A stretch of 64,000 bases of DNA from a virus, in the IMG/VR virus record IMGVR_UViG_3300009149_000027, positions 3,060 through 67,059 of that record; one strand, given 5' to 3'. Below the pieces are notes generated by a model, which saw only the letters and a list, made by a program, of their open reading frames with translations, was not told the DNA's origin and did not search any database. Shown one piece after another: positions 490 to 64,000 of this stretch. The stretch's first letter is position 1. Each line of letters starts with the position of its first letter. Both the position numbers and the translations under genes were made by a program.

Positions 490-729
490 ATGATTCATGG
501 TAAATACCAAGTCTGGATTGACGCCTACACAGAAACCATGCCCTATCTTCCCATCTGCTTCCACATCGGGGACGATCCCATCGTCGCCTCCCTTTGCGAA
601 AAGACAGCCAGGGAGATTTACCCTAATTTCACCGTGCGCTTTGTCGTTGATGGCCCACCTGTCCCATACGATAAGAGGCCCTATGCTCCCGTATCCGCCG
701 AAAAGCTGAAAGAATCAGGACTCGCATGA
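490..729 (+). CDS. hypothetical phage protein
   Basis: GGAGG RBS; ATGA overlap with next ORF. Confidence 0.6.
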   Translation: MIHGKYQVWIDAYTETMPYLPICFHIGDDPIVASLCEKTAREIYPNFTVRFVVDGPPVPYDKRPYAPVSAEKLKESGLA

Positions 730-1016
730 ACCTGCTCACCCACTACGCCAACTGGCGCAAAGCCCGTATGCTCCAATCGAAACTCGATGATCTTGACCGC
801 ACACGCACCATCAACGCCATGAAATCCCTCGGCTACGAAGGCATGGTGCTGGAAGCCGCTATCGTCGCCCACAACATCCCACCCCAGAGTCTTTGCCTCA
901 TGCTCGCCCACGAGTTCTCCCTCCAAGAAGCCTTGAGCATCTGGGACCACTGCATCGACAATGGCATCGACTTCGACAATGCTTGGGAAGCCGCATCTAA
1001 GGGACAACTATCGTGA
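726..1016 (+). CDS. hypothetical phage protein
   Basis: Stop/start overlaps on both sides. Confidence 0.65.
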   Translation: MNLLTHYANWRKARMLQSKLDDLDRTRTINAMKSLGYEGMVLEAAIVAHNIPPQSLCLMLAHEFSLQEALSIWDHCIDNGIDFDNAWEAASKGQLS

Positions 1017-1408
1017 CAAACTCGGTAGTGGAGTACAACATCCAAACCGCAGAAACCTTCGCCTTGGGTGACACCTCCAAGCCACCTACAGGTGATGTGC
1101 TTATCCGCTTCGTGGGGACAAAGTTCTCCCATTCCGTGGATGGCATGGAGGGTAAGCATGGTTCCGTCGCCCTTATCAAGAAGCAGATGCCAAGCGCATG
1201 TCTTAGCGGGGAATACCCTGTTCCAGAAGTCATCATTTCAGCCAACGGCAATGAGTGGACCTGGGAAGTCGTCTTGGGGATTGCAAAGGAAATGGGTGAA
1301 TTCATCGCCTTTGACCTGAAAAGAATCTCAAACAATTCACTATACAGGTTCGCAAAGTCCATGGTCCAATGGCAAATGGAAGCAAAATCAGCAATCAAAG
1401 GAGCATGA
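1013..1408 (+). CDS. hypothetical phage protein
   Basis: GTGA overlap, 131 aa ORF. Confidence 0.6.
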   Translation: MTNSVVEYNIQTAETFALGDTSKPPTGDVLIRFVGTKFSHSVDGMEGKHGSVALIKKQMPSACLSGEYPVPEVIISANGNEWTWEVVLGIAKEMGEFIAFDLKRISNNSLYRFAKSMVQWQMEAKSAIKGA

Positions 1409-1683
1409 CTATGCAAGGGGACTACGAAATCGGAGGCAGATGGGGAAACCATGTCAGTCTATGGGATAAAGATAAATTCTCTAATACTGACTTGGATACT
1501 CAGTTAGTGCGAGTGTATGGACACAAATCTATTCGTCCACACAAAGGGCAAACTTTAATCGGAGAATTTCGGAAAAGTTTCATAAAGTTTGAATTTGTAA
1601 AAGTTGACCTGTGCGCAGAACCGCAGGATATGTTCTTTGCGGACGTGAAGGCAATAGACCAAATAATAAAGGAGACACCATGA
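1405..1683 (+). CDS. hypothetical phage protein
   Basis: AAGGAG RBS; start at 1405 or 1411. Confidence 0.6.
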   Translation: MTMQGDYEIGGRWGNHVSLWDKDKFSNTDLDTQLVRVYGHKSIRPHKGQTLIGEFRKSFIKFEFVKVDLCAEPQDMFFADVKAIDQIIKETP

Positions 1684-2264
1684 CCCAGTACACCATGACC
1701 GCCGTAAAACCCATCAACCCAGGAGATACCGTCACCGTTGACACGTCCCTGGGCCAAGTCTCCCGCTACCACCCGCCTACACTTGATTTCCTCGTCGGCA
1801 AGAATGTTGCCGTCTCTCTCACTATCTCCCACCATTGCGCAAGCTTGGTCAGAGGCATTCTCAAACACTCCCCTGGCATCTCAAACTATTGCGTCTTCGT
1901 CACCGATACCACCGAATACGGAGGCAGCGCCTTTTGCTTCCAACCGCAGGCCGTTATGAGCATTGCTATCGCCAACTCACCCGTGCCACTTATCACACTC
2001 TACCCTACAGCGCAGGCAAAGCTCCACGAAGATGACTTTGACGCACAAGAGGAAAACGACAAACTCGTCTACGCTGACGAGGGCAACAAGGACCTGTGGC
2101 ATCCCCATACTGTCGTTACCCTCGGCACCGACGTCATCCTGGAACTGGACAACGGCACCCTCAAGATTGGCAGATACAACGCTTCCATGCACGGCTGGGA
2201 GTATGGCACGGGCGTGAATAGAACTGCGACCACCGGCGTAGTACGGTGGAGCTTTGGTGGATAA
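1680..2264 (+). CDS. hypothetical phage protein
   Basis: AAGGAG RBS then ATG 1680, ATGA overlap. Confidence 0.65.
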   Translation: MTQYTMTAVKPINPGDTVTVDTSLGQVSRYHPPTLDFLVGKNVAVSLTISHHCASLVRGILKHSPGISNYCVFVTDTTEYGGSAFCFQPQAVMSIAIANSPVPLITLYPTAQAKLHEDDFDAQEENDKLVYADEGNKDLWHPHTVVTLGTDVILELDNGTLKIGRYNASMHGWEYGTGVNRTATTGVVRWSFGG

Positions 2265-2336
2265 TGGACAATCATGCCGCCGAATGCGCACCGCCGCTTG
2301 TAAGCGAAGAACGTTATGTGGAAAAAGGAACCTGCT

Positions 2337-2858
2337 ATGAAAATCATCAAAACCCCCTTCGGCTACTATTGCACTTCCCCCAACGGACACTACGGTCGCA
2401 CCAATGGCAAATCCATCTACGAAGCTCAAATCCTCTGCGATCCCCACGCAGAAAACATGCGCTCCTTGCTCTCCGCTTACCTCGACGACGTGCAAGCCAT
2501 TGACATCAACCAAAGCTCCACATCTCCCTGCGCCGTGTGCGCTCAGGAAAAAACAAAACCCCACGCCCAGACAATCATCAAAACTCTGGTCAATACTGCG
2601 CAAGGGCACAGAACCTCAAAGCCCAATACAGGAGATACACCAATGTCCTATATCATCATCGCTGACGTAGACACAACCAATGGCGCTAACTCAGGTCACG
2701 TGGATGACGTTCAGGCTCGCATCCTCAAGCAACACAACGGGCACGTCTCTTTCGACATCAACTCCTCCTTCGATACCCAAAAACAAGATACCCTCAACCT
2801 CTGCCAATCCCTCATTAACTCCGGGTTCATTCAGTTCTCCATCCGCCACTCTTACTAG
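2337..2858 (+). CDS. hypothetical phage protein (possible in-frame internal start at 2643)
   Basis: AAGGA RBS before 2337; second AGGAG RBS before in-frame ATG 2643. Confidence 0.55.
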   Translation: MKIIKTPFGYYCTSPNGHYGRTNGKSIYEAQILCDPHAENMRSLLSAYLDDVQAIDINQSSTSPCAVCAQEKTKPHAQTIIKTLVNTAQGHRTSKPNTGDTPMSYIIIADVDTTNGANSGHVDDVQARILKQHNGHVSFDINSSFDTQKQDTLNLCQSLINSGFIQFSIRHSY

Positions 2859-3338: not shown

Positions 3339-3367
3339 TTGCATATTGCATAACAATGCGTTATACT
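3339..3367 (+). promoter_or_regulatory. sigma70-type promoter for tnpB (probably leaderless)
   Basis: TTGCAT-17 bp-TATACT, ATG at 3374. Confidence 0.55.
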
Positions 3368-3373
3368 GCATCT

Positions 3374-4495
3374 ATGAAAACGTACAAATATCGCATTTAC
3401 CCAACAACGGCCCAAGAGACAATTCTGGCTAAGATGCTAGAAGAGTGTCGCTGGCTGTACAACAAAGTTCTGGAAACCCGTAAAAAAAGCTATGAGTTGC
3501 AAGGTGTGTCCCTGGGCAACTACGATACAATGACCATGATTCCAGATTGGAAGCTAAATAGACCTTCTCTCAAAGCTGTTCATTCTCAAGTTCTGCAAAA
3601 TGTAAATATGCGTGTTGACCTGGCTTTTCAAGCCTTTTTTCGACGTGTCAAAGCTGGTGAAACTCCCGGTTACCCCCGATTCAAGGGCTATGGCCGCTAC
3701 GATAGCATGACGTTTCCGCAATACGGGAACGGTGCAAAACTGGTAGGTAATGTTCTAACTCTATCTAAGCTGGGCAATGTCAAGGTAAAACTTCACCGAG
3801 AGTTCTGCGGAACATCCAAGACGGTCACGATACGCCGTTCGTCTACCGGCAAGTGGTTCGCTTGTCTTTCTTGCGAATGCGAAGCAACGCCATTGCCAGA
3901 CGGACAAAAGGTTGTCGGAGTTGACGTGGGACTCTCCACATTTGCCACGCTGTCTAACGGCGAAAAGATAGACAACCCTCGATTCTTCAAAACAGAACAA
4001 GATGCACTCGGCAAAGCCCAACGCCGCATGGAGAAGGAAGCGAAGGGTACGCCACAACGGGCCAATCGTCGTAAAGTTGTGGCGCGTATCCACGAACGAA
4101 TAGCCAATCGGCGCACTGACTTTGCCCACAAAACTTCCCGCAAACTTGTCAACACCTACGGCACAATTGTCTTTGAGAAACTCGCCGTAGTCGATATGAT
4201 GTCCAATCACACAAAAGTCTTTGGCAACAAGCTTAATAAGAGTATCGCTGACGCCGCTTGGAGTCAGCTTGCACAGTTCACAGCCTACAAAGCGGAAGAT
4301 GCTGGCAGGTTGTTCTTGCAAGTTGACCCTCGCAATACCAGTAAAAAATGCTCTCGCTGTGGCTTGCTTGTTGAAAAAGACTTGAGTGTTCGTATTCATA
4401 ATTGTCCACATTGCGGCTTGGTTCTCGATAGAGACGTAAACGCTGCTATCAACATTCTTTCGTTGGGATTACAACGAATGGGTTCACATCCCTAG
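3374..4495 (+). CDS. tnpB: TnpB RNA-guided endonuclease
   Basis: YKYRIYPT N-terminal HTH, RuvC D (GVDVG), E (VFEKL), D (DRDVNAAINI), Zn finger CSRCG/CPHCG. Confidence 0.95.
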   Translation: MKTYKYRIYPTTAQETILAKMLEECRWLYNKVLETRKKSYELQGVSLGNYDTMTMIPDWKLNRPSLKAVHSQVLQNVNMRVDLAFQAFFRRVKAGETPGYPRFKGYGRYDSMTFPQYGNGAKLVGNVLTLSKLGNVKVKLHREFCGTSKTVTIRRSSTGKWFACLSCECEATPLPDGQKVVGVDVGLSTFATLSNGEKIDNPRFFKTEQDALGKAQRRMEKEAKGTPQRANRRKVVARIHERIANRRTDFAHKTSRKLVNTYGTIVFEKLAVVDMMSNHTKVFGNKLNKSIADAAWSQLAQFTAYKAEDAGRLFLQVDPRNTSKKCSRCGLLVEKDLSVRIHNCPHCGLVLDRDVNAAINILSLGLQRMGSHP

Positions 4496-5177: not shown

Positions 5178-5423
5178 TCACCCCTCCGCCCAGATCAGGC
5201 ACACCGTCGGCGAGCCGTGGCCAAAGCTGGCCAGGTCCACGCCTACGCACTGCTCGCCCGTGGCCGGCACCGTGTAGGCGTACCCGTAAGCGTCCCACGT
5301 GGCCACGGCAATCATAAGCAGGATAGCGGCAATCCCTACGCACCAGGCCGCCCGTATGCGCCCAGGGTGGCGAGGGTGCAAGCGGTTGGTTCGGGGTGCG
5401 GTTGTGTCTGTGAAGTTGGTCAT
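5178..5423 (-). CDS. small membrane protein
   Basis: GAGGAG RBS; hydrophobic segment WCVGIAAILLMIAVA. Confidence 0.6.
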   Translation of the reverse strand: MTNFTDTTAPRTNRLHPRHPGRIRAAWCVGIAAILLMIAVATWDAYGYAYTVPATGEQCVGVDLASFGHGSPTVCLIWAEG

Positions 5424-5650
5424 AGTTCGGTCTCCTCTTGTGTAGGTTGACAGTTGCCGATACCGAAAAGATGGCACGAGCGGCTGTAGTCGGCGACAAT
5501 GCCAAAAGCGGCGGCGGCGGCATGATTGCACTGGATGGCGGCGGCGGTATTTTCGGCAAGTGCGGGGATTGCCTTGGATGATTCGATGGCTTGCCAGGTG
5601 TCGTGAGCGAGTAGGCCGGCTATACGTTGCTGTGCGGTCTCAAGTTTCAT
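5420..5650 (-). CDS. hypothetical protein
   Basis: ATGA overlaps on both sides. Confidence 0.5.
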   Translation of the reverse strand: MKLETAQQRIAGLLAHDTWQAIESSKAIPALAENTAAAIQCNHAAAAAFGIVADYSRSCHLFGIGNCQPTQEETEL

Positions 5651-5973
5651 GATTGGTTGCCCCAGACCGGTCGGTCGGCCTCATTGACCCATTCATCACA
5701 GATGCAAAAATCTCGTGTCCCGCGTGCAAGCCGGCCGGTTGAGACCTTGCGCTGGCGATACAGACCGGACCAGATAATTTTTGTCGCATAGTCCCGTACA
5801 GGCAGATTGCGGTCAGTCTCTTCAAATCGATACGACAAATCGCCCGTCCACTCGGAGAGATAACCGCCTACTGACGTGCCGCTGGCGACTCGTGCCGCTT
5901 GCTCTGCCGTCGCACGTGTGCGGGCTATCGCTGCCATGCGTTCCTCGTGTGTTGCTGTGTTCATGGTGCCCAT
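5647..5973 (-). CDS. hypothetical protein
   Basis: GGAG RBS; downstream of promoter at 6027-6055. Confidence 0.55.
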   Translation of the reverse strand: MGTMNTATHEERMAAIARTRATAEQAARVASGTSVGGYLSEWTGDLSYRFEETDRNLPVRDYATKIIWSGLYRQRKVSTGRLARGTRDFCICDEWVNEADRPVWGNQS

Positions 5974-6026
5974 TCTCCATTGGTGTGCTGCATTGGATAG
6001 AATCAGTTATCAATCAACTCTCCACT

Positions 6027-6055
6027 ATCATAGCAGGTTTTGCGGCCATAATCAA
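6027..6055 (-). promoter_or_regulatory. sigma70-type promoter
   Basis: TTGATT-17-TATGAT on minus strand. Confidence 0.55.
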
Positions 6056-6470
6056 CCCCCAATTGTGGAGTTTTCTATACGCAAAGGCTACGTTTACCCT
6101 CCGATTGCCCTCCGCTAGCGTCTTATGTGAACTACGTACATTTGTATGCCACTGGGCCGAAAATCGCATAATGATAGCCAAAAAGCCGGGTTTAGGCAAA
6201 AGTGCGGCGGCGGCCAGGCCGAAAATCCGCCGTCAACCGTGCGAATAGACATAATAAACCGAACTATACATAATACCGTGTACCCCTGCGCATATCCGAC
6301 GCAAAGCCGACGCATTGCATATGTCCGATTCATTTTTACCCGATTCTTTTTTACAAATCCGATTCATTTCTCCGATTACCCGAAGCTGGAACGCAAAAAT
6401 CGCCGATGCTCCCGGCGGTTTGCTTGCTCTCATGCGATTGTGGCCACTGCTGGCGGTGATTCTGCCCGAT

Positions 6471-7037
6471 TCAGTCGGCAGCTGCGTCCTCTGCCTCGTC
6501 TCCTGCGCCTACCTCTGCCTCAATCATGCGGTAATCACCCTCTACCTCGGTGGTATCCGCCTCAATTGCGGCCATTTCGTTGTTGATTGCGCCGAAATCC
6601 GGCGGCTTTGGTGCATCTGCGCCCCAGCTAAACACAACGTTGACATTGTTACCGGCTGGCGTGCCTAACTGGTACAGCCCCTGGATGGTAGAGCGCTGCA
6701 CGATGCAATGGGCGACGCCGGATAGCGCTTTGATGTCGTCTGTCCGGTTGTAGTGCTGCCAATATACCCGCTCCAGGTTGTCGAATTTGGCGATAGCGGT
6801 GGATTGGTACACGTCTACGTTTTGCAGCTTGTCTTGCTGCCACTGCTTACGGATTACGGCAACGTCGGTATAGATGTCATCACGCAAAAGGGGCAGGGGC
6901 CGGGCGGTATCCTCTTCATTAATGCGGTCTACAATCTCTCCTGATGGCAACCCCTGAAGCAACAAAGCGGCAATGGTAGCAAGGTCTTTTTCTCTTTGCC
7001 TCTCCGATCTTTTTGAAGTTATGCGGTTGCTTAACAT
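6471..7037 (-). CDS. terminase small subunit-like HTH protein
   Basis: HTH-like N-terminus, D..VIRKQW, AKFDNLERVYW, GVAHCIVQRSTIQGL pattern, acidic tail; recognised from memory of phage TerS-like proteins. Confidence 0.6.
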   Translation of the reverse strand: MLSNRITSKRSERQREKDLATIAALLLQGLPSGEIVDRINEEDTARPLPLLRDDIYTDVAVIRKQWQQDKLQNVDVYQSTAIAKFDNLERVYWQHYNRTDDIKALSGVAHCIVQRSTIQGLYQLGTPAGNNVNVVFSWGADAPKPPDFGAINNEMAAIEADTTEVEGDYRMIEAEVGAGDEAEDAAAD

Positions 7038-7044
7038 AATAAAC

Positions 7045-7158
7045 TTATCCCAAATTATCCCTAAGTTATCCCAAATTTGGCGGTAGTTATCCCAAATCTC
7101 GGGCGAGTTATCCCAAATTTGTAGGTATAATCCCTATTTTTGGGTAGTTATCCCAAAT
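7045..7158. repeat. phased TTATCCCAAAT repeat array
   Basis: Copies at 7045, 7066, 7087, 7108, 7148; degenerate at 7055 and 7128. Confidence 0.9.
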
Positions 7159-7180
7159 GGGGGGATTGGGATATGGTGAT

Positions 7181-7209
7181 ATTTTAGCACAGAAAGAACC
7201 CCGGATCAA
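7181..7209 (-). promoter_or_regulatory. promoter for terS-like gene
   Basis: TTGATC-17-TAAAAT with extended TG on minus strand. Confidence 0.55.
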
Positions 7210-7227
7210 GGGGGATGATCCGGGGTT
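7197..7227 (-). terminator. intrinsic terminator hairpin
   Basis: AACCCCGGATCA/TGATCCGGGGTT 12-bp stem downstream of ORF 7242-7472. Confidence 0.65.
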
Positions 7228-7241
7228 GGGTGGTGAGCAAG

Positions 7242-7472
7242 TTATGCGTAAAATGATACAACCTCGCCGGACCTGCTATCGTGATGACTGATGATGTCCA
7301 CGCCGTCACGGTCCAGGGTTGCGGTGTGCGAGGCAATCAGTGCGGCGGCATACCCTGCGCCACGGCCACGGAAGCGATCAGGCTTGTAATAGCGATCTAG
7401 AAACTGCTCTACCGTCGCCACGTCTGTCACCTGATATTTTCGCCATGCTACTTGGGGATTCCAAAGGTCCAT
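7242..7472 (-). CDS. hypothetical protein
   Basis: GAGGAG RBS. Confidence 0.65.
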   Translation of the reverse strand: MDLWNPQVAWRKYQVTDVATVEQFLDRYYKPDRFRGRGAGYAAALIASHTATLDRDGVDIISHHDSRSGEVVSFYA

Positions 7473-7538
7473 GTGTGAATCTCCTCTGTGTTTTGTGTTG
7501 GGTGGTTTGCCAGGGCGGGGGGTGGCCCTGGGGGTGGG

Positions 7539-7733
7539 TTACTCTACTCGGTGCGCTGCCTCTTGTGCCCGCACGCCCGAAGAAACCAGCTTGACAAACT
7601 TCTCGGCCTTGCCCTTCGTGCTGAATTTGAAATAACTGTCCGGGTTAACTGCGTGCGGTCCGCTGAGGTCGGCAATCCAGCCACTCGCCCCGGCCTCTAC
7701 TTCGCTGGCTTTGAATACGTTCTTAATCGTCAT
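7539..7733 (-). CDS. hypothetical protein
   Basis: AGGAG RBS; promoter upstream. Confidence 0.65.
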
Positions 7734-7789
7734 CGTTCATTCTCCTGTGTGTAATGTGGCGAAAATCGTTATCAATCAACTTCCATTCT

Positions 7790-7818
7790 ATTATGCGCCC
7801 ATTTTCCCGGTTTGTCAA
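7790..7818 (-). promoter_or_regulatory. sigma70-type promoter (leftward of a divergent pair)
   Basis: TTGACA-17-CATAAT. Confidence 0.7.
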
Positions 7819-7888
7819 CCCCTAATATAGCATTATCGGCAAAGATGCGTAATTATACGTATTTATTGAGAAATGGGAATATTGGGTA

Positions 7889-7917
7889 TTGACACCGTGA
7901 GGAAATGGGTGTAATAT
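7889..7917 (+). promoter_or_regulatory. sigma70-type promoter (rightward of a divergent pair)
   Basis: TTGACA-17-TAATAT. Confidence 0.65.
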
Positions 7918-7983
7918 GGATGCAGAGCCGGATGATAGATAACAAGTCGCCACGCAACACTAGCCATGAGGAGAGAATAACCG

Positions 7984-8190
7984 ATGACATACCGTCAATT
8001 TGTAGCCCATTATAAGAGAAACGTACTTCCCCACATTCAAGCCACCTACGAAAAGGGCGGGCGAAAAGACATCCCCGCACGGCGTCAGGCGTTCAACGAA
8101 GAAATGGACAGCCTTTGTCGCAGTGGCCAGATCACTGACAAGCAGGCGAGAACCTGGGACGGATTGCCCCGAAGCCTTGCCAAAAAGTAA
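7984..8190 (+). CDS. hypothetical protein
   Basis: GAGGAG RBS. Confidence 0.7.
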   Translation: MTYRQFVAHYKRNVLPHIQATYEKGGRKDIPARRQAFNEEMDSLCRSGQITDKQARTWDGLPRSLAKK

Positions 8191-8246
8191 GCCGCCACAT
8201 AACACAACCGGGGAGGGTTGCCCCTCCCCCATGAAAGGATCTGGCC

Positions 8247-8444
8247 ATGAAGGGCACCAAAGAATTTGAGGAACTACAGAGGGAATTCGAGAAGCAAGCC
8301 CCCAAGGTGACACGCCACCCCGTCGAGCGGGTCGATAAGGGTGAGAAGGTCCCCGCCGATGTGTTCTACCGGCACGGAAGCACAAATGAACTATTTCACA
8401 CGTTCATGCTGGGCTATTCATTTGCTAAATATATCTATCAATAG
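8247..8444 (+). CDS. hypothetical protein
   Basis: AAGGA RBS. Confidence 0.65.
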   Translation: MKGTKEFEELQREFEKQAPKVTRHPVERVDKGEKVPADVFYRHGSTNELFHTFMLGYSFAKYIYQ

Positions 8445-8507
8445 GAGGGGGGATTCCCAATCTATCCGACGTATCCGACACACTTTTACACGAGGAGAAA
8501 ACGACCG

Positions 8508-8810
8508 ATGCAAGGCAAGGACATAGCAACTATCATCATCCAGCAATTGGGCGGCTACGGGAAGCTGAAGGCCATGATCAACGCCCGCAATATGGCGTAT
8601 GACGACAATTCCCTTTCGTTCCGCTTCTCAGGGTATCGCAAGGCTGTTTTTTGTCGAATCACCCTCACCAGCCTGGATCTCTACCACATGCGCCTTTTCA
8701 AGGTGGACAAATACGGGACAATCAAAACCGCATTCGAGTTGGGCGGAATGTATAACGACATGCTGATCCCCGTCTTTGAATCGGCCACCGGCCTACGCCT
8801 GAGTTTATAG
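8508..8810 (+). CDS. conserved-looking hypothetical phage protein
   Basis: GAGGAG RBS; A.TI..QLGG ... FE..TGL.LSL pattern. Confidence 0.7.
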   Translation: MQGKDIATIIIQQLGGYGKLKAMINARNMAYDDNSLSFRFSGYRKAVFCRITLTSLDLYHMRLFKVDKYGTIKTAFELGGMYNDMLIPVFESATGLRLSL

Positions 8811-8830
8811 CCAAGAGGAGAAAATAACCG

Positions 8831-9106
8831 ATGCTAACCCGTGATGAACACTTCACCAAAATTAACGACTATGCCCACATGACCGTAGGCGAAGAGTGGG
8901 AGATCGACAAAGAGACCTATTGGTATTTTCTGGAATGCTTGCCCCCCCTGGCGATGGCTCACGGTTGCTTTTGGATGAGCGAATTTACCAAAGGCAGCGT
9001 AACGGGCCGATACCGCAAGCAGGGGGATCGCTACTTCGCATCTGAGCAGGACATCCGCACAGATCCCCTGTTCCCCACCAAAGCCGAAAGAATGTGCTGG
9101 GCCTAA
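8831..9106 (+). CDS. DUF1419-like protein
   Basis: EID.ETYWYFLECLPPL..F.MSEF..GSVT pattern. Confidence 0.55.
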   Translation: MLTRDEHFTKINDYAHMTVGEEWEIDKETYWYFLECLPPLAMAHGCFWMSEFTKGSVTGRYRKQGDRYFASEQDIRTDPLFPTKAERMCWA

Positions 9107-9163
9107 GTTCCGCCCCTACCCCCCAATCTATCCGATGCACTTACACAAAGGAGAAAACACACG

Positions 9164-9424
9164 ATGCAGATCCACATCCAACCCGACCCAACCCCCGAAG
9201 AGGAAACCGACCGCCTGTTCTACTGTACCGTGATCGACGGCGACCGTCATGGTTTCCTCCTCGGACCCTATGAAACCCTGGCCGGGGCCGAGGCTAACGT
9301 GAAACGGGCGCGGATCCTTGCGCATTCTATTGATCCAAATACCGTCTGGTATGGTATTGGAGCGGCTGGCATTTTGCGTAGCAACCCCCAGCCCACCCGC
9401 GTCCTCTTCGCCGACCAGACCTAG
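9164..9424 (+). CDS. hypothetical protein
   Basis: AGGAG RBS. Confidence 0.65.
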   Translation: MQIHIQPDPTPEEETDRLFYCTVIDGDRHGFLLGPYETLAGAEANVKRARILAHSIDPNTVWYGIGAAGILRSNPQPTRVLFADQT

Positions 9425-9489
9425 ACAACGCTGGACCCCTGAACCTATCCGATTCATTTCGCACCACTTAGCAGAGGAGAAAACGACCG

Positions 9490-9786
9490 ATGACCAACCC
9501 TATCACTTACGGCACCTGGGAAGTTTCCAAGGACGCTACGCCCGACTATGCCCCACAGTTTACCATCTACGCCGAAGACACCGGGGAGCGTGTGGCGACT
9601 GTCTTCCAGACCCCTGCAAATGCCCGACTGATCGCCGCAGCCCCTGATATGCTGCGGGCGCTGAAATTGGCCGATGAGTACATCTACGAAACCATCTATG
9701 AGGCAACGCCCAGAACAAGCGTCAAGGATTCAGGTCGAATACTGCGCGCCGTTGTTGACGCCATTTCCCTAGCCACGGAGGGCTAA
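9490..9786 (+). CDS. phage protein of the ANARLIAAAP family
   Basis: ANARLIAAAPDML motif; GAGGAG RBS. Confidence 0.75.
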   Translation: MTNPITYGTWEVSKDATPDYAPQFTIYAEDTGERVATVFQTPANARLIAAAPDMLRALKLADEYIYETIYEATPRTSVKDSGRILRAVVDAISLATEG

Positions 9787-9789
9787 CCC

Positions 9790-10011
9790 ATGACCGACGA
9801 GGACAAAACCACTATCCGCACGATGCAACGCAACCTGATGCAGATCAAGAGAACGGGGAAAGCGCCCATCAATCTGGTGCAGTATCAGAAGATGGGGCTA
9901 ATCGCCATCCGACGCAAAAACGTAAAACTGGCTTCGGGCCGAACGGAAAAGATATTTGACCGGCTGCTACTGACCGACAAAGGCAAGCGCACCCTCTCCG
10001 CAATTGTCTAA
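9790..10011 (+). CDS. basic hypothetical protein
   Basis: GGAGG RBS. Confidence 0.6.
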   Translation: MTDEDKTTIRTMQRNLMQIKRTGKAPINLVQYQKMGLIAIRRKNVKLASGRTEKIFDRLLLTDKGKRTLSAIV

Positions 10012-10077
10012 TCGATGACACTATCCCCCTGAACCTATCCGACGATCTTTGACCCATTACCAAAGGATGACACCACC

Positions 10078-10335
10078 ATGACAATCTTCCGCATCGGCCG
10101 CCCCGACTTCTGGCACATATCCCACAACCTGGACAAAGTTCAGACCGACCCCGAAACCCTCAAGACCCTAAAGCATGGGATCAACTGTTTCAAGATGTTA
10201 ATTTCCATCGGGTCGAGTCTCAACGCCTCGGAATTTGCCTACCTGATTGGCGGGGATTATGACATGAGCAACCCAAAGACCGCCGCAGTCGTCAACGCAT
10301 TTTTCAGCCTATCCACAAAGGAAACCATCCGATGA
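10078..10335 (+). CDS. hypothetical protein
   Basis: AAGGA RBS, ATGA overlap. Confidence 0.6.
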   Translation: MTIFRIGRPDFWHISHNLDKVQTDPETLKTLKHGINCFKMLISIGSSLNASEFAYLIGGDYDMSNPKTAAVVNAFFSLSTKETIR

Positions 10336-10595
10336 ACACCAAGATCCGCAAAATCACCAAGTTTGACCCGTGCCCCTCCCACAAAAGTTTCTTTCACGGA
10401 ATGGCCCGCTACCGCAAAGCCGATTATTTTAGCCAGGGGGGACCGTCAGTAGGCCCCTGCTGCAGTGGCGCGGGGTGCCGAATCTCCCCAGGCCGGGACA
10501 TTTTCATTGAGGAGGTCTGCCGCCGCACATACAACACCTATACGCTGGGGACCCCATTCTCATGGCAGATCAACAAAGACGGGGTGACGATATGA
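10332..10595 (+). CDS. hypothetical protein
   Basis: Overlaps with both neighbours. Confidence 0.55.
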   Translation: MNTKIRKITKFDPCPSHKSFFHGMARYRKADYFSQGGPSVGPCCSGAGCRISPGRDIFIEEVCRRTYNTYTLGTPFSWQINKDGVTI

Positions 10596-10948
10596 CCGCC
10601 GCCGTCACCCTCATCAATCAATCGTTTCACGAAGTCAACGCCGGGACAATCCTCCATCCCCTCCTCGTGTGGGAGTGCGACGTGGACCGCATCGGCGGCA
10701 AGACGGGCGCACAGGCCATCCTGGATGAACTGCTAACCCTGGACCCCCTCTTTGTATCCGACGCAATCTGGGAGACAATGGCGGCCCTGAGAGACTACCT
10801 GGCCGACCCCGACGCTGACCCCTGGGGAGTGGAATATGTGATTGAGGCTTACGACCAGGCCCTGCTGGACGCCATGACCCTCAACTGTGCCCGACGCAAC
10901 GCCGAGGCCCTTACCTATCCGATGTTTCAGGGGGCAATGGCTATCTGA
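10592..10948 (+). CDS. hypothetical protein
   Basis: ATGA overlap. Confidence 0.6.
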   Translation: MTAAVTLINQSFHEVNAGTILHPLLVWECDVDRIGGKTGAQAILDELLTLDPLFVSDAIWETMAALRDYLADPDADPWGVEYVIEAYDQALLDAMTLNCARRNAEALTYPMFQGAMAI

Positions 10949-11032
10949 TAAGTGCGGCTTATGTAAACGTCTCCGTGACCGCCACGGAGTGGACAATCTA
11001 TCCGATTTACTTTCACAAAGGAAACCTGAACC

Positions 11033-11323
11033 ATGAGCAAGCCCTACATGCACGTTTACGTGAACACCGACGAAAATGCCCTGTTTGGCAGCGAAGGCCC
11101 TGGCGAACACGACGCAGATTTGAGCCGAAAATCATACGTCAACATGGTCGAAGGCGCAGTAGTCGAGGCGTTCCCCGACCACGATGTCGATGTCGTCGAA
11201 GCGCCGCATACACGATACATTGACGGTGACTTCGAGACGAGTGGCGACTTCGACGACGCCGCCACGGCCGAGCGGATCGTCAACGATGTCTACGGCTCGT
11301 TTGAATGGCTAGTCAACGAGTAA
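11033..11323 (+). CDS. acidic hypothetical protein
   Basis: AAGGA RBS; D/E rich. Confidence 0.65.
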   Translation: MSKPYMHVYVNTDENALFGSEGPGEHDADLSRKSYVNMVEGAVVEAFPDHDVDVVEAPHTRYIDGDFETSGDFDDAATAERIVNDVYGSFEWLVNE

Positions 11324-11448
11324 CGCCGCAGGACGTGGAAAGCGACTCGCCCGCCCCCATACACCTATCCGACGCATTCCACGTCCTGGCGGCCCAGCCA
11401 CGGTCCCAGGGGGGCAATCAACATCCGATTCAAAAAGGAACATCAACC

Positions 11449-11670
11449 ATGATTTACAAACGAGCGACCAAAGCATTACAAGATGCGGGAATTGAAGGTA
11501 TCGTTATCAAAAAGTATCTTTGGGGACCGGCCCCGCATTACGTTCAGGCAATCCGCCAATCCTCACGCTGCTTTAATACCTGGCAGCAAGCCAGGGACGC
11601 CGTGCTGGACGGATTCCGACCTACTGTCGAGGAATGGGCAATACAGGGAGAGACTCATGTCACCCAATGA
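11449..11670 (+). CDS. hypothetical protein
   Basis: AAGGA RBS before ATG 11449. Confidence 0.55.
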   Translation: MIYKRATKALQDAGIEGIVIKKYLWGPAPHYVQAIRQSSRCFNTWQQARDAVLDGFRPTVEEWAIQGETHVTQ

Positions 11671-12316
11671 CAAGGTAAACCAATACGTCAGCGCCGTTGT
11701 GCTGCAAAAGCGCCTGGGCAAGATTCCAGCCATCATAAAGACAAAGCAGAAAAAGTTGAAAAGCCCGACGTTGACCAACACGTGGAAAACCCGCCATGAG
11801 AACGACATCGTAGCCTGGGAAGCCCAGCAAGCCGCCATCAAAGAGGAACTGGCCATCCGGGGGGATGAGAGGATGTCCGAACTACTGTGCCGAGTGACAG
11901 CACCCACCACGAACGATAAATGGATAGGTGAGGATGACCTGTACCAGCACGGGCGGGAGAATGGCCTGCCCGACGACCTGATGGAAGTGCGCCCCGTGCG
12001 CTGGGAGCCAGACGTGATCGGCCTCTACACCACCAGAGCCGGTGTCCAGAAGTACCACCGCAAGGAAGTGGAGTGGGCTAACAAGACGTTCAGATTGCCC
12101 AAGGCGAAGATGGACAACCTGGAACGGTGGGCGGAACTGCTGGACACCTACGCCGCCGCTGGCCCCAACCGGCGCGACGGACCCACGCCCAAAGCATCTC
12201 TGCAAAGCCTTTTCAGCCTGCTATCAGAGGTGGACCCCCTGCTTGTATCCGACGCATTGCGCCCACTGGTCCAGATGGCGAAAGCCAACAGGAGCGGGGA
12301 CGAGGACGACGACTAG
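11657..12316 (+). CDS. hypothetical protein
   Basis: GGGAG RBS before ATG 11657; long ORF. Confidence 0.7.
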   Translation: MSPNDKVNQYVSAVVLQKRLGKIPAIIKTKQKKLKSPTLTNTWKTRHENDIVAWEAQQAAIKEELAIRGDERMSELLCRVTAPTTNDKWIGEDDLYQHGRENGLPDDLMEVRPVRWEPDVIGLYTTRAGVQKYHRKEVEWANKTFRLPKAKMDNLERWAELLDTYAAAGPNRRDGPTPKASLQSLFSLLSEVDPLLVSDALRPLVQMAKANRSGDEDDD

Positions 12317-12324
12317 GCACAACA

Positions 12325-12350
12325 AAGCCCAGGCATCCCGGCCTGGGCTT
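12325..12350. terminator. terminator hairpin between convergent genes
   Basis: AAGCCCAGGC/GCCTGGGCTT stem. Confidence 0.65.
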
Positions 12351-12385
12351 CTCCGTTCTGTATATCCGACTCATTTTCTAGACAA

Positions 12386-13147
12386 TCAAAAAGCCAGGTG
12401 CGTTCCCAGCCGCTTGGCGTATTCCACCAGCACTGCCTCCGGCACGTTGTCCTGGTCCAGCGCCCCGTCCCAAGCCGCCGCCGGGTGGCCGTCCCGGTAC
12501 GTTGTCATGGAGACCCTCGTATGTATCCGATGATCCACCACCGACACGAAGAAGTGATAGTCGCTGTAGTTCTGGTCCGCCCGCAATAATCTGTCTATCT
12601 CCTCAACCCCCGCCATTGCACTGGGGGCCTCCGCCAACCGACCTACAATCTCCCTCAGTACGGCCGTATCCGACGCATCCGCCGCCAACCCATAGGCATT
12701 GATGGCATTGTCTCGCACAGCGGGGGACAGGGAATGCAACTTCCCTTCTTTTTCCGTGTCATAGTCCAGCGTACCCTGACGGGGCCATGTGCCCAGTTTG
12801 CCGATTGAGTTGGCGACACGGGCAGGCAGGGCCAGCACCGTTTCGGGCGACAATCCAGCCCCCGCAACCAGGCGCACGTAATCCCTGGTGCGCTGTTGCA
12901 ACGTTTCCATGCTGACGGTCACGACACCCCGATTGCGACACTCGAAAACGAAGGACCGCAGCCACCCCTCCCAGCTATCAGATTCGTCCCGCCAAAGCTG
13001 TAGTTCGTAGATGTCGAATAGGTGGGCATAGCCCTGGAATGCCCACCGATCTGCCTCGTGAAAACAAGTTATCGCCTGCTCCGATAGCTGGAACAGACGA
13101 TTCACAACGAGATGGGCAGGCGCTTCAATGACCAAATCAGTTTGCAT
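12386..13147 (-). CDS. hypothetical protein (helical, possibly DNA binding)
   Basis: 253 aa ORF, GGGGGTG RBS. Confidence 0.75.
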   Translation of the reverse strand: MQTDLVIEAPAHLVVNRLFQLSEQAITCFHEADRWAFQGYAHLFDIYELQLWRDESDSWEGWLRSFVFECRNRGVVTVSMETLQQRTRDYVRLVAGAGLSPETVLALPARVANSIGKLGTWPRQGTLDYDTEKEGKLHSLSPAVRDNAINAYGLAADASDTAVLREIVGRLAEAPSAMAGVEEIDRLLRADQNYSDYHFFVSVVDHRIHTRVSMTTYRDGHPAAAWDGALDQDNVPEAVLVEYAKRLGTHLAF

Positions 13148-13273
13148 GATTCACCCCCATGTCCGCCACCTTCCGCCACACCGCCGCACCCATCCACCCC
13201 AAACACAACAAAGCCGCCATCACATAGACGGCGGCCAGGGTGATACTGGTTTCGAGACGGGCTAGGGATTGCG

Positions 13274-13621
13274 TCATGTGTGGCTCCAACTGGACCCGAA
13301 AGCGCCGGGGTGCGTGGCTGTGCTGATGTTACCGGGGGACGTGGTGGCCGCGGTAAGCGTGTCACCGATTGTGATCTTGTCGTTTTTCCCGGACATAGGA
13401 TCGCCCGCCCAAAGTTTCGTGTGTTCGCATCTACCGTCAGGATAAGGAAACGGCGTAGCAGGCTGGCCGTAGTATGGCACGGTCACGGACTTTTCAGTCT
13501 CACGCTTGCTAAAAAGATCGTGCAATTCAGCATACAGTTTCCAAGCGTCGTCAACGGATAGCGAGAAAAACGCTTTTTTGCCGTCAAGTGCCGTAACCTT
13601 TGCTGTGATTTCTATGGGCAT
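13274..13621 (-). CDS. hypothetical protein
   Basis: AGGAG RBS before MPIEITAKV. Confidence 0.55.
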   Translation of the reverse strand: MPIEITAKVTALDGKKAFFSLSVDDAWKLYAELHDLFSKRETEKSVTVPYYGQPATPFPYPDGRCEHTKLWAGDPMSGKNDKITIGDTLTAATTSPGNISTATHPGAFGSSWSHT

Positions 13622-13947
13622 GGGTTGCGCTCCTGGGTGGCTGATACCGCAGAACGGTATCGTTGCCGTGCCTACACGTGGCAGGTCGGCATGGGGGGAC
13701 GTGAATGTGGGGCTATTCCCACGTGGCACGTGAGAACGCCCCTGGAGAAATCTTACTGCCAAAACGTGCGGTGTGTCTTGGCGGCTACTCTCTACCTGCC
13801 GTCTGATGTTGCCTAGAAAGTCTGTGGTCGGCAATTGACACGAACAGGCTAGTAGCCTTGGAACGATGCACGTTCAAACATCAGCATATCACAGAAGACG
13901 ACGCAATGCAACAGGATGCGAAGAATTCGTGGAGGGTGTCTTTATGC

Positions 13948-28523: not shown

Positions 28524-28573
28524 ACCCATCCGCCGCATCCCCCGGCGGCATAGCAGAGAGGAGAATTGAGACG

Positions 28574-43835: not shown

Positions 43836-44948
43836 TTATGTCACTCGCTTCCATCCGAGTTCAAGAGCGTCAAGTTCTGCCGTGGACCAAGCGGCGCTGG
43901 TATCAGGGCTTAGAGTTAGAACATCCGTGCGCCAAGCGTATGAGGTTGATGGGACAAAGGATGTCTGGTCATAATCCGTACTATTGACCCGCACGAAATG
44001 GGCCATGTTATCAGCGCCCGCAGCGGAGTTTGCGACATTGGAGACAAGCATCACTGCCCCCACGGTTCCTGTAACGGCCGTGTTGGTCAAGTTGACGCTG
44101 GTGCGCTGTCCTGTAGTGGATGACGAAAGCATCGTTATGTCGCCGTCGGGCAGACTCCCATAACTGGCCACGTCGTCTACTTCGGTGTAATCCACCGCAC
44201 CACCCGTGCTGGTCATGGCCGTGTACGTGCCATCTGCGTTGGGCGTAAACATATGCACGCCTGCGCCGTTGGGCCACGAATTGGATACCGTGCCGGTGGT
44301 GTCGTTGACAATTACGTCGTCAAAATAGAAGTCTGCTTCTCCTCCTGGACCGCCGCCGTCGCCGTTGTGGGCAACACCCATTTGGAATGCTTGTATATTG
44401 TCGCCGCTAACATTTGTATCTATTCCCGTCAGGTTAATATCGACGGCTCCATTTACTCTAGTTGTTATCACGCCAGCCGAATCATGTATCACCACTCGCA
44501 ATTCGACGCAGTACATCTGGTCTGCCCCAATAGCAACGCTGCCAGTGCCAAGAAGCGTTCCTGTGTGCGCGCTCCCTCGGTAGACTCTGATTAGATTGGT
44601 TGGGCCGTCAAGAGTAAGCGTTATCTGCTTAGAGGTATCACTGGAAAGAAGAACTAGGAAGGCAACACCAATTCCACCATGTCCTTCAACTAGCGGAGTA
44701 CCTGAATCCCAAAGCAGGGGAACCTGAAAAAACAGTTCAGTATATGTTGATGGCAGTGTTTCAGATAGGTAACGCTCATAGGCTTCAGTAGTGCTTCGGA
44801 TTCGCACGGCACCGCCGCCAGTCCTGGCGTTAGCGGCCACATAGGTGAGTTCGCCCTGCGTGGCACCGCCCTCGGTAAACGAGGTCCACAATCCAGGATC
44901 GTTTTCCGCAAATTGAATTTCAAAGCTGTCCTGCCAAATAGTTGCCAT
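43836..44948 (-). CDS. virion protein with beta-sandwich (lectin-like) domain
   Basis: DSFE start, YCVELR, YFDDV.VND, W...ELDALELG. Confidence 0.7.
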   Translation of the reverse strand: MATIWQDSFEIQFAENDPGLWTSFTEGGATQGELTYVAANARTGGGAVRIRSTTEAYERYLSETLPSTYTELFFQVPLLWDSGTPLVEGHGGIGVAFLVLLSSDTSKQITLTLDGPTNLIRVYRGSAHTGTLLGTGSVAIGADQMYCVELRVVIHDSAGVITTRVNGAVDINLTGIDTNVSGDNIQAFQMGVAHNGDGGGPGGEADFYFDDVIVNDTTGTVSNSWPNGAGVHMFTPNADGTYTAMTSTGGAVDYTEVDDVASYGSLPDGDITMLSSSTTGQRTSVNLTNTAVTGTVGAVMLVSNVANSAAGADNMAHFVRVNSTDYDQTSFVPSTSYAWRTDVLTLSPDTSAAWSTAELDALELGWKRVT

Positions 44949-63989: not shown

Positions 63990-64000
63990 AAACCATCTCC

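Follow-up and report, generated by a model that had tools for sequence, protein, structure and literature searches.

A strand-biased TATCCGA motif around a small-gene operon of an uncultivated phage is most likely a gene-control signal

Genes and features of the locus

The window (the whole stretch of 64,000 nucleotides analysed here, positions 3,060 to 67,059 of IMG/VR record IMGVR_UViG_3300009149_000027) contains a field of plus-strand TATCCGA motifs that extends past a terS-like gene, over an operon of small genes and into the convergent minus-strand gene 12386-13147, whose coding potential is positive (Table 1). Gene 6471-7037 plausibly encodes a small terminase, as the earlier note had proposed; its homologs immediately precede the large terminase gene in each of the three annotated phages examined. 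The PHROG label carried by this family, 'Rnase E', appears to be a misannotation. The large terminase of the present phage is found at contig positions 551-2362, ~7 kb from the field. A terminator hairpin and the start codon of the terS-like gene flank an array of direct repeats with the core TATCCCA, which has one mismatch to TATCCGA and the same orientation; its units fall short of the threshold of the field's position weight matrix (PWM).

Only one sigma70-like plus-strand promoter was predicted for the entire 4.3-kb operon. Direct reading of the sequence revealed no site overlapping this promoter, and the first two genes directly behind it are without the motif. The proteins encoded in the field have almost no relatives, a search for relatives carrying the motif found none, and no recognisable DNA-binding family was detected among the 13 operon proteins or the divergent small genes. 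A scan of 66 ORFs, which left aside structural-block ORFs such as 38595-39923, 43836-44948, 50343-51620 and 53682-54725, recovered neither an integrase nor an immunity repressor.

The cluster at the left border lies within ~500 bp of non-coding DNA (5974-6470) that follows the stop codon of the terS-like gene, and begins 19 nt past the -10 element of a promoter-like sequence; the stretch 6281-6430 that follows this promoter-like site has an unstructured body (z = -0.17) and ends in a hairpin followed by a U-rich tail. Far outside the field, the degenerate copy at 28527 is located 4 nt past the stop codon of the Erf gene and ~40-50 nt ahead of an AGGAG sequence plus ATG; its flank, CCTGAACC, is the same as that of sites 9446 and 10036.

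Table 1. Motif sites and neighbouring features, in window coordinates; "exact" denotes TATCCGA.
Feature	Positions	Strand	Basis
Sigma70-like promoter, TAGACA-17-CATAAT, 10/12	6246-6274	+	consensus match only
Cluster, one exact and ~5 degenerate CCGAYKCA-type units	6293-6380	+	PWM hits 6293, 6304, 6322, 6356
terS-like gene, 188 aa, N-terminal HTH-like segment, acidic tail	6471-7037	-	synteny
Array, five AGTTATCCCAAAT units (spacing 21, 21, 21, 40 bp) and one inverted copy	7043-7173	+	
Sigma70-like promoter at operon head, TTGACA-17-TAATAT	7889-7917	+	consensus match
Operon, 13 small genes (65-219 aa), host of 13 sites	7984-12316	+	gene calls and site map
Exact sites 8463 and 8472, overlapping-adjacent, intergenic, 45 and 36 nt before ATG 8508	8463-8482	+	
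Exact, intergenic, 35 nt before ATG 9164	9129-9139	+	
Exact, intergenic, 44 nt before ATG 9490	9446-9456	+	
Near-match CATCCGACGCA within gene 9790-10011	9906-9916	+	
Exact, intergenic, 42 nt before ATG 10078; TATCCCCC unit 14 nt upstream	10036-10046	+	
Near-match across start codon 10332, possibly chance	10326-10336	+	
Exact with full extended motif, within gene 10562-10948	10755-10765	+	
Exact, in final 33 nt of gene 10562-10948	10916-10926	+	
Exact, intergenic, 34 nt before ATG 11033	10999-11009	+	
Exact, intergenic, 83 nt before ATG 11449	11366-11376	+	
Near-match, intergenic, 27 nt before ATG 11449	11422-11432	+	
Exact with full extended motif, near 3' end of gene 11657-12316	12246-12256	+	
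Hairpin, 9-bp stem, between convergent genes	12326-12349		sequence read directly; consensus scan flags - orientation only
Exact, 14 nt past hairpin, between convergent genes	12363-12373	+	
Exact, antisense in gene 12386-13147	12524-12534	+	
Exact, antisense in gene 12386-13147	12667-12677	+	
Outlying weaker, degenerate copy CATCCGCCGCAT, intergenic	28527-28538	+	PWM hit

Abundance and sequence of the motif

The 14 exact plus-strand copies counted by eye in the earlier note (Table 1, from 6293 to 12667) are all present, and so are the two that it had noticed outside the field, at 23249 and 36093; a single minus-strand copy, at 51543-51549, had escaped its list, and the first 3,059 bases of the record, before the window, contain none. 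This total of 17 compares with 4.44 +/- 2.19 in dinucleotide shuffles of the window, none of which (0/100) reached 17. In a scan of every 7-mer across the 67,059-bp record, TATCCGA was the most strongly clustered; 14 of its 16 plus-strand copies fall within 6.4 kb (binomial probability multiplied by the number of windows, ~7e-12). The four near-matches reported earlier (6356, 9906, 10326, 11422) are genuine ATCCGAY sites, a pattern with 21 plus-strand occurrences, 18 of them in 6294-12668, and six minus-strand occurrences, none inside the field. The phage carries ~20 copies on the same strand, mostly in the small gaps of one operon.

The enrichment, for which the earlier note had named a background or codon-aware null as the appropriate comparison, persists in both coding and non-coding DNA. 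Five coding copies were observed against 0.60 +/- 0.73 when synonymous codons were shuffled per gene (0/2000 shuffles reached five), and nine copies occur in 1,402 non-coding bases, where base composition predicts 0.09. The coding copies occupy three different frames, and the two proteins that read the motif in the same frame (sites 10755 and 12246) are alike only over the 10 residues that it encodes. Because the codon-aware null fails to account for the coding copies, three frames are used and protein likeness is limited to motif-encoded residues, selection on the motif acts at the level of DNA or RNA, not of protein.

The extended consensus of the earlier note also holds, and proves wider than it had stated: the motif spans ~14-25 nt, C-rich-N-yTATCCGAYKCAyT, with conserved positions +7 (Y), +8 (K), +9 (C), +10 (A) and +12 (T), and a run of C residues from -10 to -7 that is present in 10, 9, 9 and 8 of 14 copies (P for at least 10 of 14 = 0.001). 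A unit resembling ATCCC or ACCCC precedes several field sites by 11-14 bp, such as TATCCCCC at site 10036 and CCCAATC at sites 8463 and 9129. The core is G+C-rich (CCG) and so suits recognition better than DNA melting. No RNA structure is common to the seven intergenic copies compared, and the motif regions are unstructured.

Placement and polarity of the sites

Intergenic DNA makes up 12.4% of the operon, yet eight of the 13 operon sites fall there (P = 4e-5), and all but one of these eight stand 27-45 nt ahead of the next ATG, upstream of the ribosome-binding site (RBS). Beyond 8444, each of the six intergenic gaps of at least 57 bp holds at least one site; gaps of 20 bp or less hold none, save for a weak 10-bit PWM hit at 8825. 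This geometry, in gaps and at a regular distance to starts, fits a signal linked to transcription. All 13 operon sites are co-oriented with transcription, and the field contains no minus-strand copy.

The earlier note had held that polarity follows genome position rather than transcription, citing the plus-strand copies inside gene 12386-13147. These copies, 12524 and 12667, were confirmed, but no other copy is clearly antisense to a gene. The one plus-strand operon holds ten of the 14 exact copies, or 13 of 18 with near-matches counted, all in its own direction; 12363 stands 14 nt past the hairpin at the end of the operon, and the 6293 cluster follows a sigma70-like plus-strand promoter. The claim is therefore unsupported. 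The oriented loading or guide system proposed on this basis fits poorly with sites that are biased to intergenic DNA, keep a regular distance to starts and cover ~10% of the genome, and with a large terminase ~7 kb away. For neither of the two other genes put forward as sources of a cognate protein, 11657-12316 and 12386-13147, could a family or relatives be detected.

Operator-like sites and known precedents

We tentatively favour, at a probability of about 0.4 and ahead of promoters or an RNA element, operator or stoperator-like sites for a putative protein factor. TATCCGA would be the core element in a cis-regulatory site that is asymmetric, ~14-25 bp long and has its C-run one helical turn upstream, and the sites would belong to one transcription unit, 7984-12316, and its two borders; a sequence-specific protein, encoded by phage or host, may bind them and act on RNA polymerase moving in the plus direction. 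The border sites are located where plus-strand transcription would meet convergent genes, and the 4-6 tandem degenerate units packed into 90 bp at 6293-6380 look like a protein-binding array, not promoters. The outlier at 28527, intergenic, on the plus strand and ahead of an RBS and ATG, counts for a regulatory site.

Close precedents are found in the Microbacterium Cluster EC phages and in the L5 stoperators. In Cluster EC, an 18-bp asymmetric motif occurs in 12 copies, all in one orientation and all located in small intergenic regions, where they precede the RBS and stand 21-30 bp ahead of start codons; similar repeats are described for Cluster EI phages (PMC7302621). The present motif is likewise asymmetric, has about a dozen copies in small gaps, keeps one orientation and lies upstream of the RBS near starts; it differs in sequence, in the larger distance to starts (27-45 nt), in the concentration of copies in one operon, some within coding sequence, and in the tandem degenerate cluster and the copies pointing into convergent genes. 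For Cluster A mycobacteriophages (L5 gp71; structure of the TipsytheTRex repressor), a monomer reads an asymmetric site and blocks elongation in one orientation only (PMC9283540). The likeness extends to an asymmetric site on the scale of a 13-mer, more than 20 copies, short intergenic spaces and a transcription-tied orientation (PMC9283540). Several points speak against this reading: no recognisable DNA-binding family turned up among the proteins of the operon or the divergent small genes; stoperators are genome-wide and serve lysogenic immunity, whereas the present sites span ~10% of the genome and the ORF scan found no integrase or immunity repressor; and L5 has operators at its promoter, whereas the operon promoter here has no site. 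The start-associated sequences (SAS and ESAS) of Cluster K mycobacteriophages and Cluster EF Microbacterium phages (PMC7302621) are similarly conserved repeats in intergenic gaps tied to gene starts; SAS overlap the ribosome-binding site, whereas here an ordinary AGGAG-type RBS stands apart, downstream of the motif.

Alternative explanations

Less likely than operators, although next in rank, are phage-class-specific promoters, one middle-phase promoter per small gene or gene pair, driven by host RNA polymerase that a small phage sigma factor or appropriator has redirected, or by an unrecognised phage polymerase. T4 middle and late promoters and the phiEco32 gp36 promoters are analogues. Promoters or 5'-UTR elements would show the regular spacing to start codons just as well; co-orientation with an RBS in between, the single sigma70-like promoter of the operon, the motif-less first two genes (as expected if an immediate-early product activates the sites) and the position of 28527 ahead of a plus-strand gene would all agree with promoters. 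However, the 66 ORFs scanned include no RNA polymerase or sigma factor, a 950-aa ORF carries no polymerase domain, the G+C-rich core is accompanied by neither an A/T-rich melting element nor a TAnnnT at fixed distance, and the units at 6293-6380 and sites 10755, 12246, 12524 and 12667 lack a gene that they could serve.

It is rather improbable that the motif acts in RNA, as a single-stranded binding or cleavage site for an RNA-binding protein or RNase of phage or host in polycistronic mRNA, with the 6293 cluster as a small sponge RNA of ~145 nt and 5-6 copies. Intergenic processing sites are known from T7 early mRNA, and the unstructured motif regions, the promoter-like start and hairpin end of 6281-6430, and the position of every site on a potentially sense-transcribed strand, given read-through past hairpin 12326-12349, are in keeping with such a role; but 12524 and 12667 could enter RNA only by read-through or antisense transcription, Rfam has no match within 5400-13400, neither an RNA-binding protein nor an RNase could be recognised, and the 'Rnase E' label of the terS-like family is doubtful.

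Still less probable are weak, dispersed TerS sites, in line with the terminase suggestion of the earlier note, with the TATCCCA array as a candidate pac site, that would orient terminase or couple packaging to shut-off of the adjoining operon. Small-terminase recognition sites such as SPP1 pacL/pacR and the lambda cosB R sites are compact direct repeats beside terS, which the array resembles, and 21-bp phasing, seen in its five units, is what wrapping of DNA around an oligomeric HTH ring would lead one to expect. Since the array and field cores differ at a single position, a TerS link to the field is possible, and both the location of the terS-like gene within the field and the ATCCC-/ACCCC-like upstream units would accord with it. 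Two such motifs would, however, share a 6/7 core by chance at ~0.1 (a rough estimate), and the array units stay below the PWM threshold. The TATCCGA sites are scattered across 6.4 kb and positioned relative to genes, whereas pac and cos sites are compact, to our knowledge at most a few hundred bp; placement in gaps at a set distance from starts has no packaging rationale, TerL is distant, and the homolog in phage B124-14 has no comparable repeat array upstream.

Recombination junctions, at which motif, 5'-UTR and small gene form an exchangeable module and the repeats are kept by mediating shuffling, as in T4 PeSL elements or integron attC sites, are very unlikely: the co-oriented small ORFans with a repeat in each gap and near-absent relatives suit them, but no recombinase adjoins the field, the IS605-type transposase at 3356-4495 relies on other signals, the sites are not inverted repeats, and copies within genes and within the convergent gene bound no modules. 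Least probable of all is a Chi- or KOPS-like polar signal, for example one shielding the first-injected end from host RecBCD or AddAB nuclease, since the geometry does not fit such a guide despite strict polarity (14/14, including two antisense copies): conservation reaches well past 7-8 nt, sites are mainly intergenic and placed relative to genes, they are confined to 6.4 kb of an apparently circularly permuted genome, and four genomes from the candidate host lineage show the motif at control level.

Implications for gene control

The motif is thus most likely a gene-control signal like those already known in other phages, not a DNA-packaging guide. As operators or roadblocks in the style of mycobacteriophage stoperators, the sites would silence the operon gene by gene, and those at its borders (6293-6380 and 12363-12667) would halt plus-strand transcription before it enters the convergent terS-like gene and gene 12386-13147.

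Abundance, null models and width of the motif

The 14 exact plus-strand copies of TATCCGA that an earlier note on this DNA had counted by eye between 6293 and 12673 (hereafter the field) were confirmed at every coordinate; they represent 14 of the 16 plus-strand copies and are confined to 6.4 kb of a 67 kb genome. The window as a whole contains 17 copies, compared to 4.44 +/- 2.19 in shuffled sequences, and a k-mer enrichment analysis along the genome, which the note had suggested as a check, identified TATCCGA as the most spatially clustered of all 7-mers. The related form ATCCGAY occurs 21 times on the plus strand, with 18 of these copies in 6294-12668, and six times on the minus strand, with none in the field. 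The enrichment also survives a codon-aware null model, an outcome on which the earlier note had made its case depend: synonymous-codon shuffles within genes predict 0.60 coding copies against 5 seen, and at least 5 were obtained in 0 of 2000 such shuffles; for the 1,402 non-coding bases, 0.09 copies are expected and 9 are present. The coding copies are read in different frames, and where two proteins contain the motif in one and the same frame, they are alike only over the 10 residues encoded by the extended motif; selection is therefore at the level of the nucleic acid.

The motif is wider than 7 nt and takes the form y-TATCCGA-Y-K-C-A-y-T, with a run of C residues 7-10 nt upstream. A 16-nt weight matrix with a threshold of >=9 bits gave 26 hits on the plus strand and 2 on the minus strand; 22 plus-strand hits and no minus-strand hits fall into the field (6293-12667). 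The matrix was built from the same 18 sites, whose matching is by construction, and mononucleotide shuffles produce approximately 5 hits per strand at >=9 bits, so that the weakest hits may be due to chance. The exact copies at 23249 and 36093 are both below the matrix threshold and look like chance occurrences.

Organization of the locus

Genes were mapped by coding-potential scoring; the resulting features are listed in the table.

Features at and near the TATCCGA field; positions refer to the window, except where "contig" marks a position in the whole record
Feature	Position	Strand	Remarks
Large terminase (TerL) gene	contig 551-2362	-	phrog_2, E = 1.4e-29; outside the window (left), directly upstream of portal
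Minus genes	5420-5650; 5647-5973	-	coding potential
Non-coding stretch, ~500 bp	5974-6470		
Minus gene (terS-like)	6471-7037	-	
Repeat array	7043-7173		between terminator hairpin and terS-like start codon
Minus genes	7242-7472; 7539-7733	-	
Promoter-like site, 11/12 match	7818-7790	-	divergent promoter region
Promoter-like site, TTGACA-17-TAATAT	7889-7917	+	divergent promoter region
Operon, 13 genes	7984-12316	+	
Hairpin, 9-bp stem	12326-12349		between convergent genes
Convergent minus gene	12386-13147	-	

All 13 sites within the operon point in the direction of the operon, and only two copies in the field are clearly antisense; the suggestion in the earlier note that the polarity of the motif is independent of transcription is thus not borne out. 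Intergenic sequence accounts for 12.4% of the operon, yet it harbors 8 of the 13 operon sites (P = 4e-5). Downstream of 8444, all six intergenic gaps of at least 57 bp contain a site; a site is missing from the gaps of 20 bp or less, save for a weak hit of 10 bits at 8825. Of the eight intergenic sites, seven are located 27-45 nt 5' of the next ATG and 19-51 nt 3' of the previous stop codon, upstream of ordinary AGGAG-type ribosome-binding sites; the two genes that come first behind the sigma70-like promoter are without a site.

The sites outside the operon are found at its two borders, and they likewise point rightwards. At the left border, a cluster at 6293-6380, made up of one exact unit and several degenerate ones, starts 19 nt past the -10 element of a plus-strand promoter-like site (6246-6274) and is aimed into the 3' end of the terS-like gene; at the right border, the sites at 12363, 12524 and 12667 lie beyond the hairpin and are aimed into the convergent gene, where the latter two are antisense. 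A degenerate copy far from the field (28527-28538) begins 4 nt past the Erf stop codon, is followed by AGGAG and ATG approximately 40-50 nt downstream, and has the CCTGAACC flank in common with the sites at 9446 and 10036. Since the sites favor intergenic gaps, keep to a fixed window before start codons, follow gene direction and are concentrated in one operon, with an outlier that abides by the same rule, the motif is tied to the expression of one transcription unit.

The non-coding regions of this locus contain another repeat, the 14-nt sequence GTTATCAATCAACT, which is identical at 6006-6019 and 7768-7781 and has similar surroundings in both places; each copy is found just 3' of a minus-strand sigma70-like promoter (at 6055-6027 and 7818-7790, respectively) and forms part of the leader of a minus gene (5647-5973 and 7539-7733, respectively).

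The terS-like gene and the TATCCCA array

The 188-aa product of the terS-like gene yielded no Pfam or PHROG hits for the protein itself and no significant match to solved structures. An exhaustive search recovered 406 relatives at E <= 0.001; in the family alignment, which comprises 69 of the 152 relatives listed, 67 of 69 proteins match phrog_645 (labeled "Rnase E"), eight match the Pfam family HTH_23, four match Terminase_5, and one matches TerS_N. In all three annotated Bacteroides phages examined (B124-14, B40-8, and C1_85S2P), the gene of the homolog immediately precedes that of the large terminase; in B124-14 the two genes overlap, and in C1_85S2P the 517-aa "hypothetical" protein downstream of the homolog matches Terminase_6N. 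Because the homologs occupy this small-terminase position, the name "terS-like" used in the earlier note is accepted on the basis of synteny, and the PHROG/RefSeq label "Rnase E" of phrog_645 appears to be a misannotation. The homolog in C1_85S2P is annotated as a sigma factor. In the present phage, the terS-like gene is located approximately 7 kb from TerL; the plus-strand block between them includes an IS605-type (TnpB-like) transposase gene at 3356-4495 (phrog_506, E = 6e-113).

The array next to the terS-like gene consists of five AGTTATCCCAAAT units, whose starts are 21, 21, 21, and 40 bp apart, and of one further copy that is inverted; it is a good candidate for a TerS recognition (pac) site or an operator. 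Its core, TATCCCA, has one mismatch to TATCCGA and equal orientation, and several field sites have a unit resembling ATCCC or ACCCC at a distance of about one helical turn on their 5' side; since the probability of such a likeness of cores by chance is estimated at roughly 0.1, the resemblance of the cores is a lead and not evidence.

Very similar arrays, with ATCCCAA units at 10-11-bp spacing, occur once each in four Chloroflexota MAGs (three Anaerolineae and one Caldilineaceae; loci L179, L183, L185, and L188; 55-61% G+C), with no shared gene beside the arrays of the four; these arrays could hint at a host lineage or a host factor. Among the matches to an iteron-pair pattern, the 24 hits in IMG/VR (L155-L178; 19-37% G+C) were rejected as unrelated to the phage array; 23 of these contigs contain near-perfect 21-nt tandem repeats that include GTTATCCCAAA and that, as read from the sequence, encode an in-frame heptapeptide, and L160 has a different kind of array; nine of the 24 are named as giant-virus MAGs (GVMAG). 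The 10 bacterial hits were mostly generic 21-bp tandem repeats, and the neighbors of these arrays share no gene.

Genome and searches for relatives

The window corresponds to bases 3060-67059 of an IMG/VR virus record with a length of 67,059 bp. The contig ends overlap with 85% identity (bases 3-550 against the last ~550 bases, window ~63450-64000), and the portal N-terminus is encoded at both ends (85% identical over 179 residues); on these grounds the genome is predicted to be circular or circularly permuted, with a size of ~66.5 kb around which the assembly wraps. The record is therefore not a 69% fragment of the genome, and the seam of the contig joins two co-occurring strains. Recognizable genes code for a DnaB-like helicase, an Erf-like annealing protein, a DnaD/HTH_36 replication protein, a PriCT primase domain, an HNH endonuclease, a Lar-like protein, and a head maturation protease. 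Three HNH-type endonuclease genes are scattered over the genome (23653-24351, 34887-35456, and 58351-59052).

A blastn search of 6000-13900 against 50,697 phage records returned no matches. The sole public run that contains the stretch is a subsurface metagenome (DNA), which may be its source; no public RNA runs were listed in a search for the locus. Among the contigs of that DNA run at 80% likeness, only the source contig extends across the field; apart from it, there is a fragment of 126 nt from a sister strain. Peptide-pattern scans of IMG/VR with the products of 11657-12316, 12386-13147, 9490-9786, and 8508-8810 found no relatives, and neither did a scan with P0004, the closest homolog within the TerS family. 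In a collection of 5.8 billion proteins, 11657-12316 and 10562-10948 matched only themselves, and an Atlas search with 12386-13147 gave scores at chance level only. The CCCCTGNNNNTATCCGAYKCA pattern was found in one stretch of IMG/VR, with a single site, and in at least 116 metagenome stretches, which among the matches listed have single matches except for L066, a metagenome contig of 1,313 nt. This contig was rejected as a motif relative; it contains a 90-bp tandem satellite, judged coincidental, whose unit includes CCCCTGACCCTATCCGATTCA, near the extended field motif.

Relatives of the portal protein were found at 18 loci with 35-53% identity (about 50% for the records examined further), and none in genome_contigs. 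In five of these records, TATCCGA occurs in 0-6 scattered copies, and none of the three genomes retrieved in full has a 7-mer that clusters in a comparable way; what they contain are low-complexity coding repeats. These three genomes are also without homologs of this TerS and TerL and are therefore too distant to test covariation. A TerS-family match was present in 2 of 401 sampled Chloroflexota genomes; the best of these (G356) has 70% G+C DNA and no other protein in common with this phage. Altogether, no carriers of the motif or of field-protein homologs were found in IMG/VR, JGI metagenomes, GTDB species genomes, the 401 sampled Chloroflexota genomes, or large protein collections.

Possible functions of the field

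Of three mechanisms linked to transcription, the one ranked first is that the TATCCGA sites would be operator or roadblock sites, oriented with rightward transcription; based on the anatomy of the locus, we give this tentative reading a probability of about 0.4. It takes precedence because the core is G+C-rich, because the degenerate units repeated in tandem over 90 bp behind a promoter resemble a binding array, and because the border sites stand where rightward transcription would meet convergent genes. L5-type stoperators behave in this manner. With regard to an operator at the early promoter, there is no site at 7889-7917, and the cluster lies just 3' of the promoter-like site 6246-6274; of the 66 ORFs that were scanned in one library or more, none matched a repressor family.

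It is unlikely, although second in rank, that the sites are phage-specific promoters; the site geometry fits this function, but several sites have no gene to serve, and no polymerase or sigma factor was found among the 66 ORFs scanned, a set that leaves several structural-block ORFs outside. Readings of the motif as a sigma70, sigma54, sigma28, or sigma32 element or as a MotA box were rejected, as inspection by eye found no second element at a fixed distance.

An RNA-level element, ranked third, is less probable again. It would be consistent with the layout of 6246-6430, where a plus-strand promoter-like site is followed by five to six unstructured motif units and then by a hairpin with a U-rich tail; this segment could produce a ~145-nt non-coding RNA that is antisense to the region flanking the terS-like gene on its 3' side, and such a transcript (6281-6425) might act as a sponge RNA. 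The seven intergenic copies have no consensus RNA secondary structure, and Rfam has no match in 5400-13400; a tRNA search found none.

The earlier note had regarded the field as an oriented guide system, for example for terminase. The related core in the TerS-adjacent array speaks for a terminase guide, but its main prediction was not seen, since most copies follow one operon and only the two copies within the convergent gene are clearly antisense; we consider this reading improbable. A long shot of similar standing is that one oligomeric HTH protein, the putative small terminase whose gene lies mid-field, reads both the 21-bp-phased TATCCCA array, as a pac-like loading site, and the dispersed, co-oriented TATCCGA sites; as it builds up late in infection, it would turn off the neighboring operon and set the direction in which packaging starts, so that packaging of the genome and the shut-off of transcription would be directly coupled at the molecular level. 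In a variant of this scheme, prompted by the single ATCCCAA array in each of the four Chloroflexota genomes, a conserved host factor (possibly of Chloroflexota) may read ATCC(C/G)A units. Cassette junctions and a Chi-like signal both fit poorly.

Comparison with known phage repeats

The closest published description that was found concerns the Cluster EC Microbacterium phages, which have an 18-bp asymmetric motif in 12 copies, located in small intergenic regions in one orientation, at 21-30 bp from the start codons that follow and on the 5' side of the ribosome-binding site; its function is stated there to be unclear (PMC7302621). Copy number, small gaps, orientation and pre-RBS placement all have their counterparts in the field; "Cluster EC-type" is nevertheless a descriptive class and not a homologous family. 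Repeats in Cluster EI, SAS/ESAS, and stoperators belong, broadly, to the same kind. L5-type stoperators are characterized as asymmetric 13-mers with more than 20 copies per genome, which are found both within promoters and in short gaps between genes and work in one orientation only (PMC9283540). The field resembles the stoperators of Cluster A mycobacteriophages in its many asymmetric copies (14 exact and four near) and in their short intergenic placement, oriented with transcription; in contrast to the genome-wide spread of stoperators, 14 of the 16 plus-strand copies are found within 6.4 kb, with one degenerate outlier at 28527. Because genome-wide spread is absent and no repressor was found among the ORFs scanned, the field is not classified as a stoperator system.

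The field is also not classified as a pac site or as Chi/KOPS. Unlike the pac/cos sites of TerS, it is not compact but extends over 6.4 kb, and only the array at 7043-7173 is compact and gene-adjacent; Chi- and KOPS-type guides are words of 5-8 nt that lack wider conservation, occur across the genome, mostly in coding DNA, and are skewed with replication or DNA ends, and in contrast to these the field has conserved flanks and sites enriched in intergenic regions, and it covers only ~10% of the genome. A full-text literature search for the motif together with "phage" found no such motif in titles or abstracts among the matches listed. The field is an unusually clean new case of an asymmetric intergenic phage repeat; particular to this case are the concentration in one operon, the degenerate tandem cluster, the sites aimed at convergent genes, and the related phased array.

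On present evidence, the field is a solid but unsurprising regulatory repeat. Co-oriented asymmetric intergenic repeats recur in phages (EC, EI, SAS/ESAS), and a function is known only for the L5 stoperators; here, an uncultivated subsurface phage without close relatives provides a very clean example, in which ~20 sites keep strict polarity and follow a positional rule that can be measured, and which includes features – the tandem cluster behind a promoter, and the sites aimed at convergent genes – that could help to separate the possible mechanisms. Should the sites turn out to act as polar roadblocks or as a new class of promoter, motif and reader together would make up a compact, orthogonal module for gene control; were the small terminase to read them, they would represent a link between packaging and gene regulation without earlier description.
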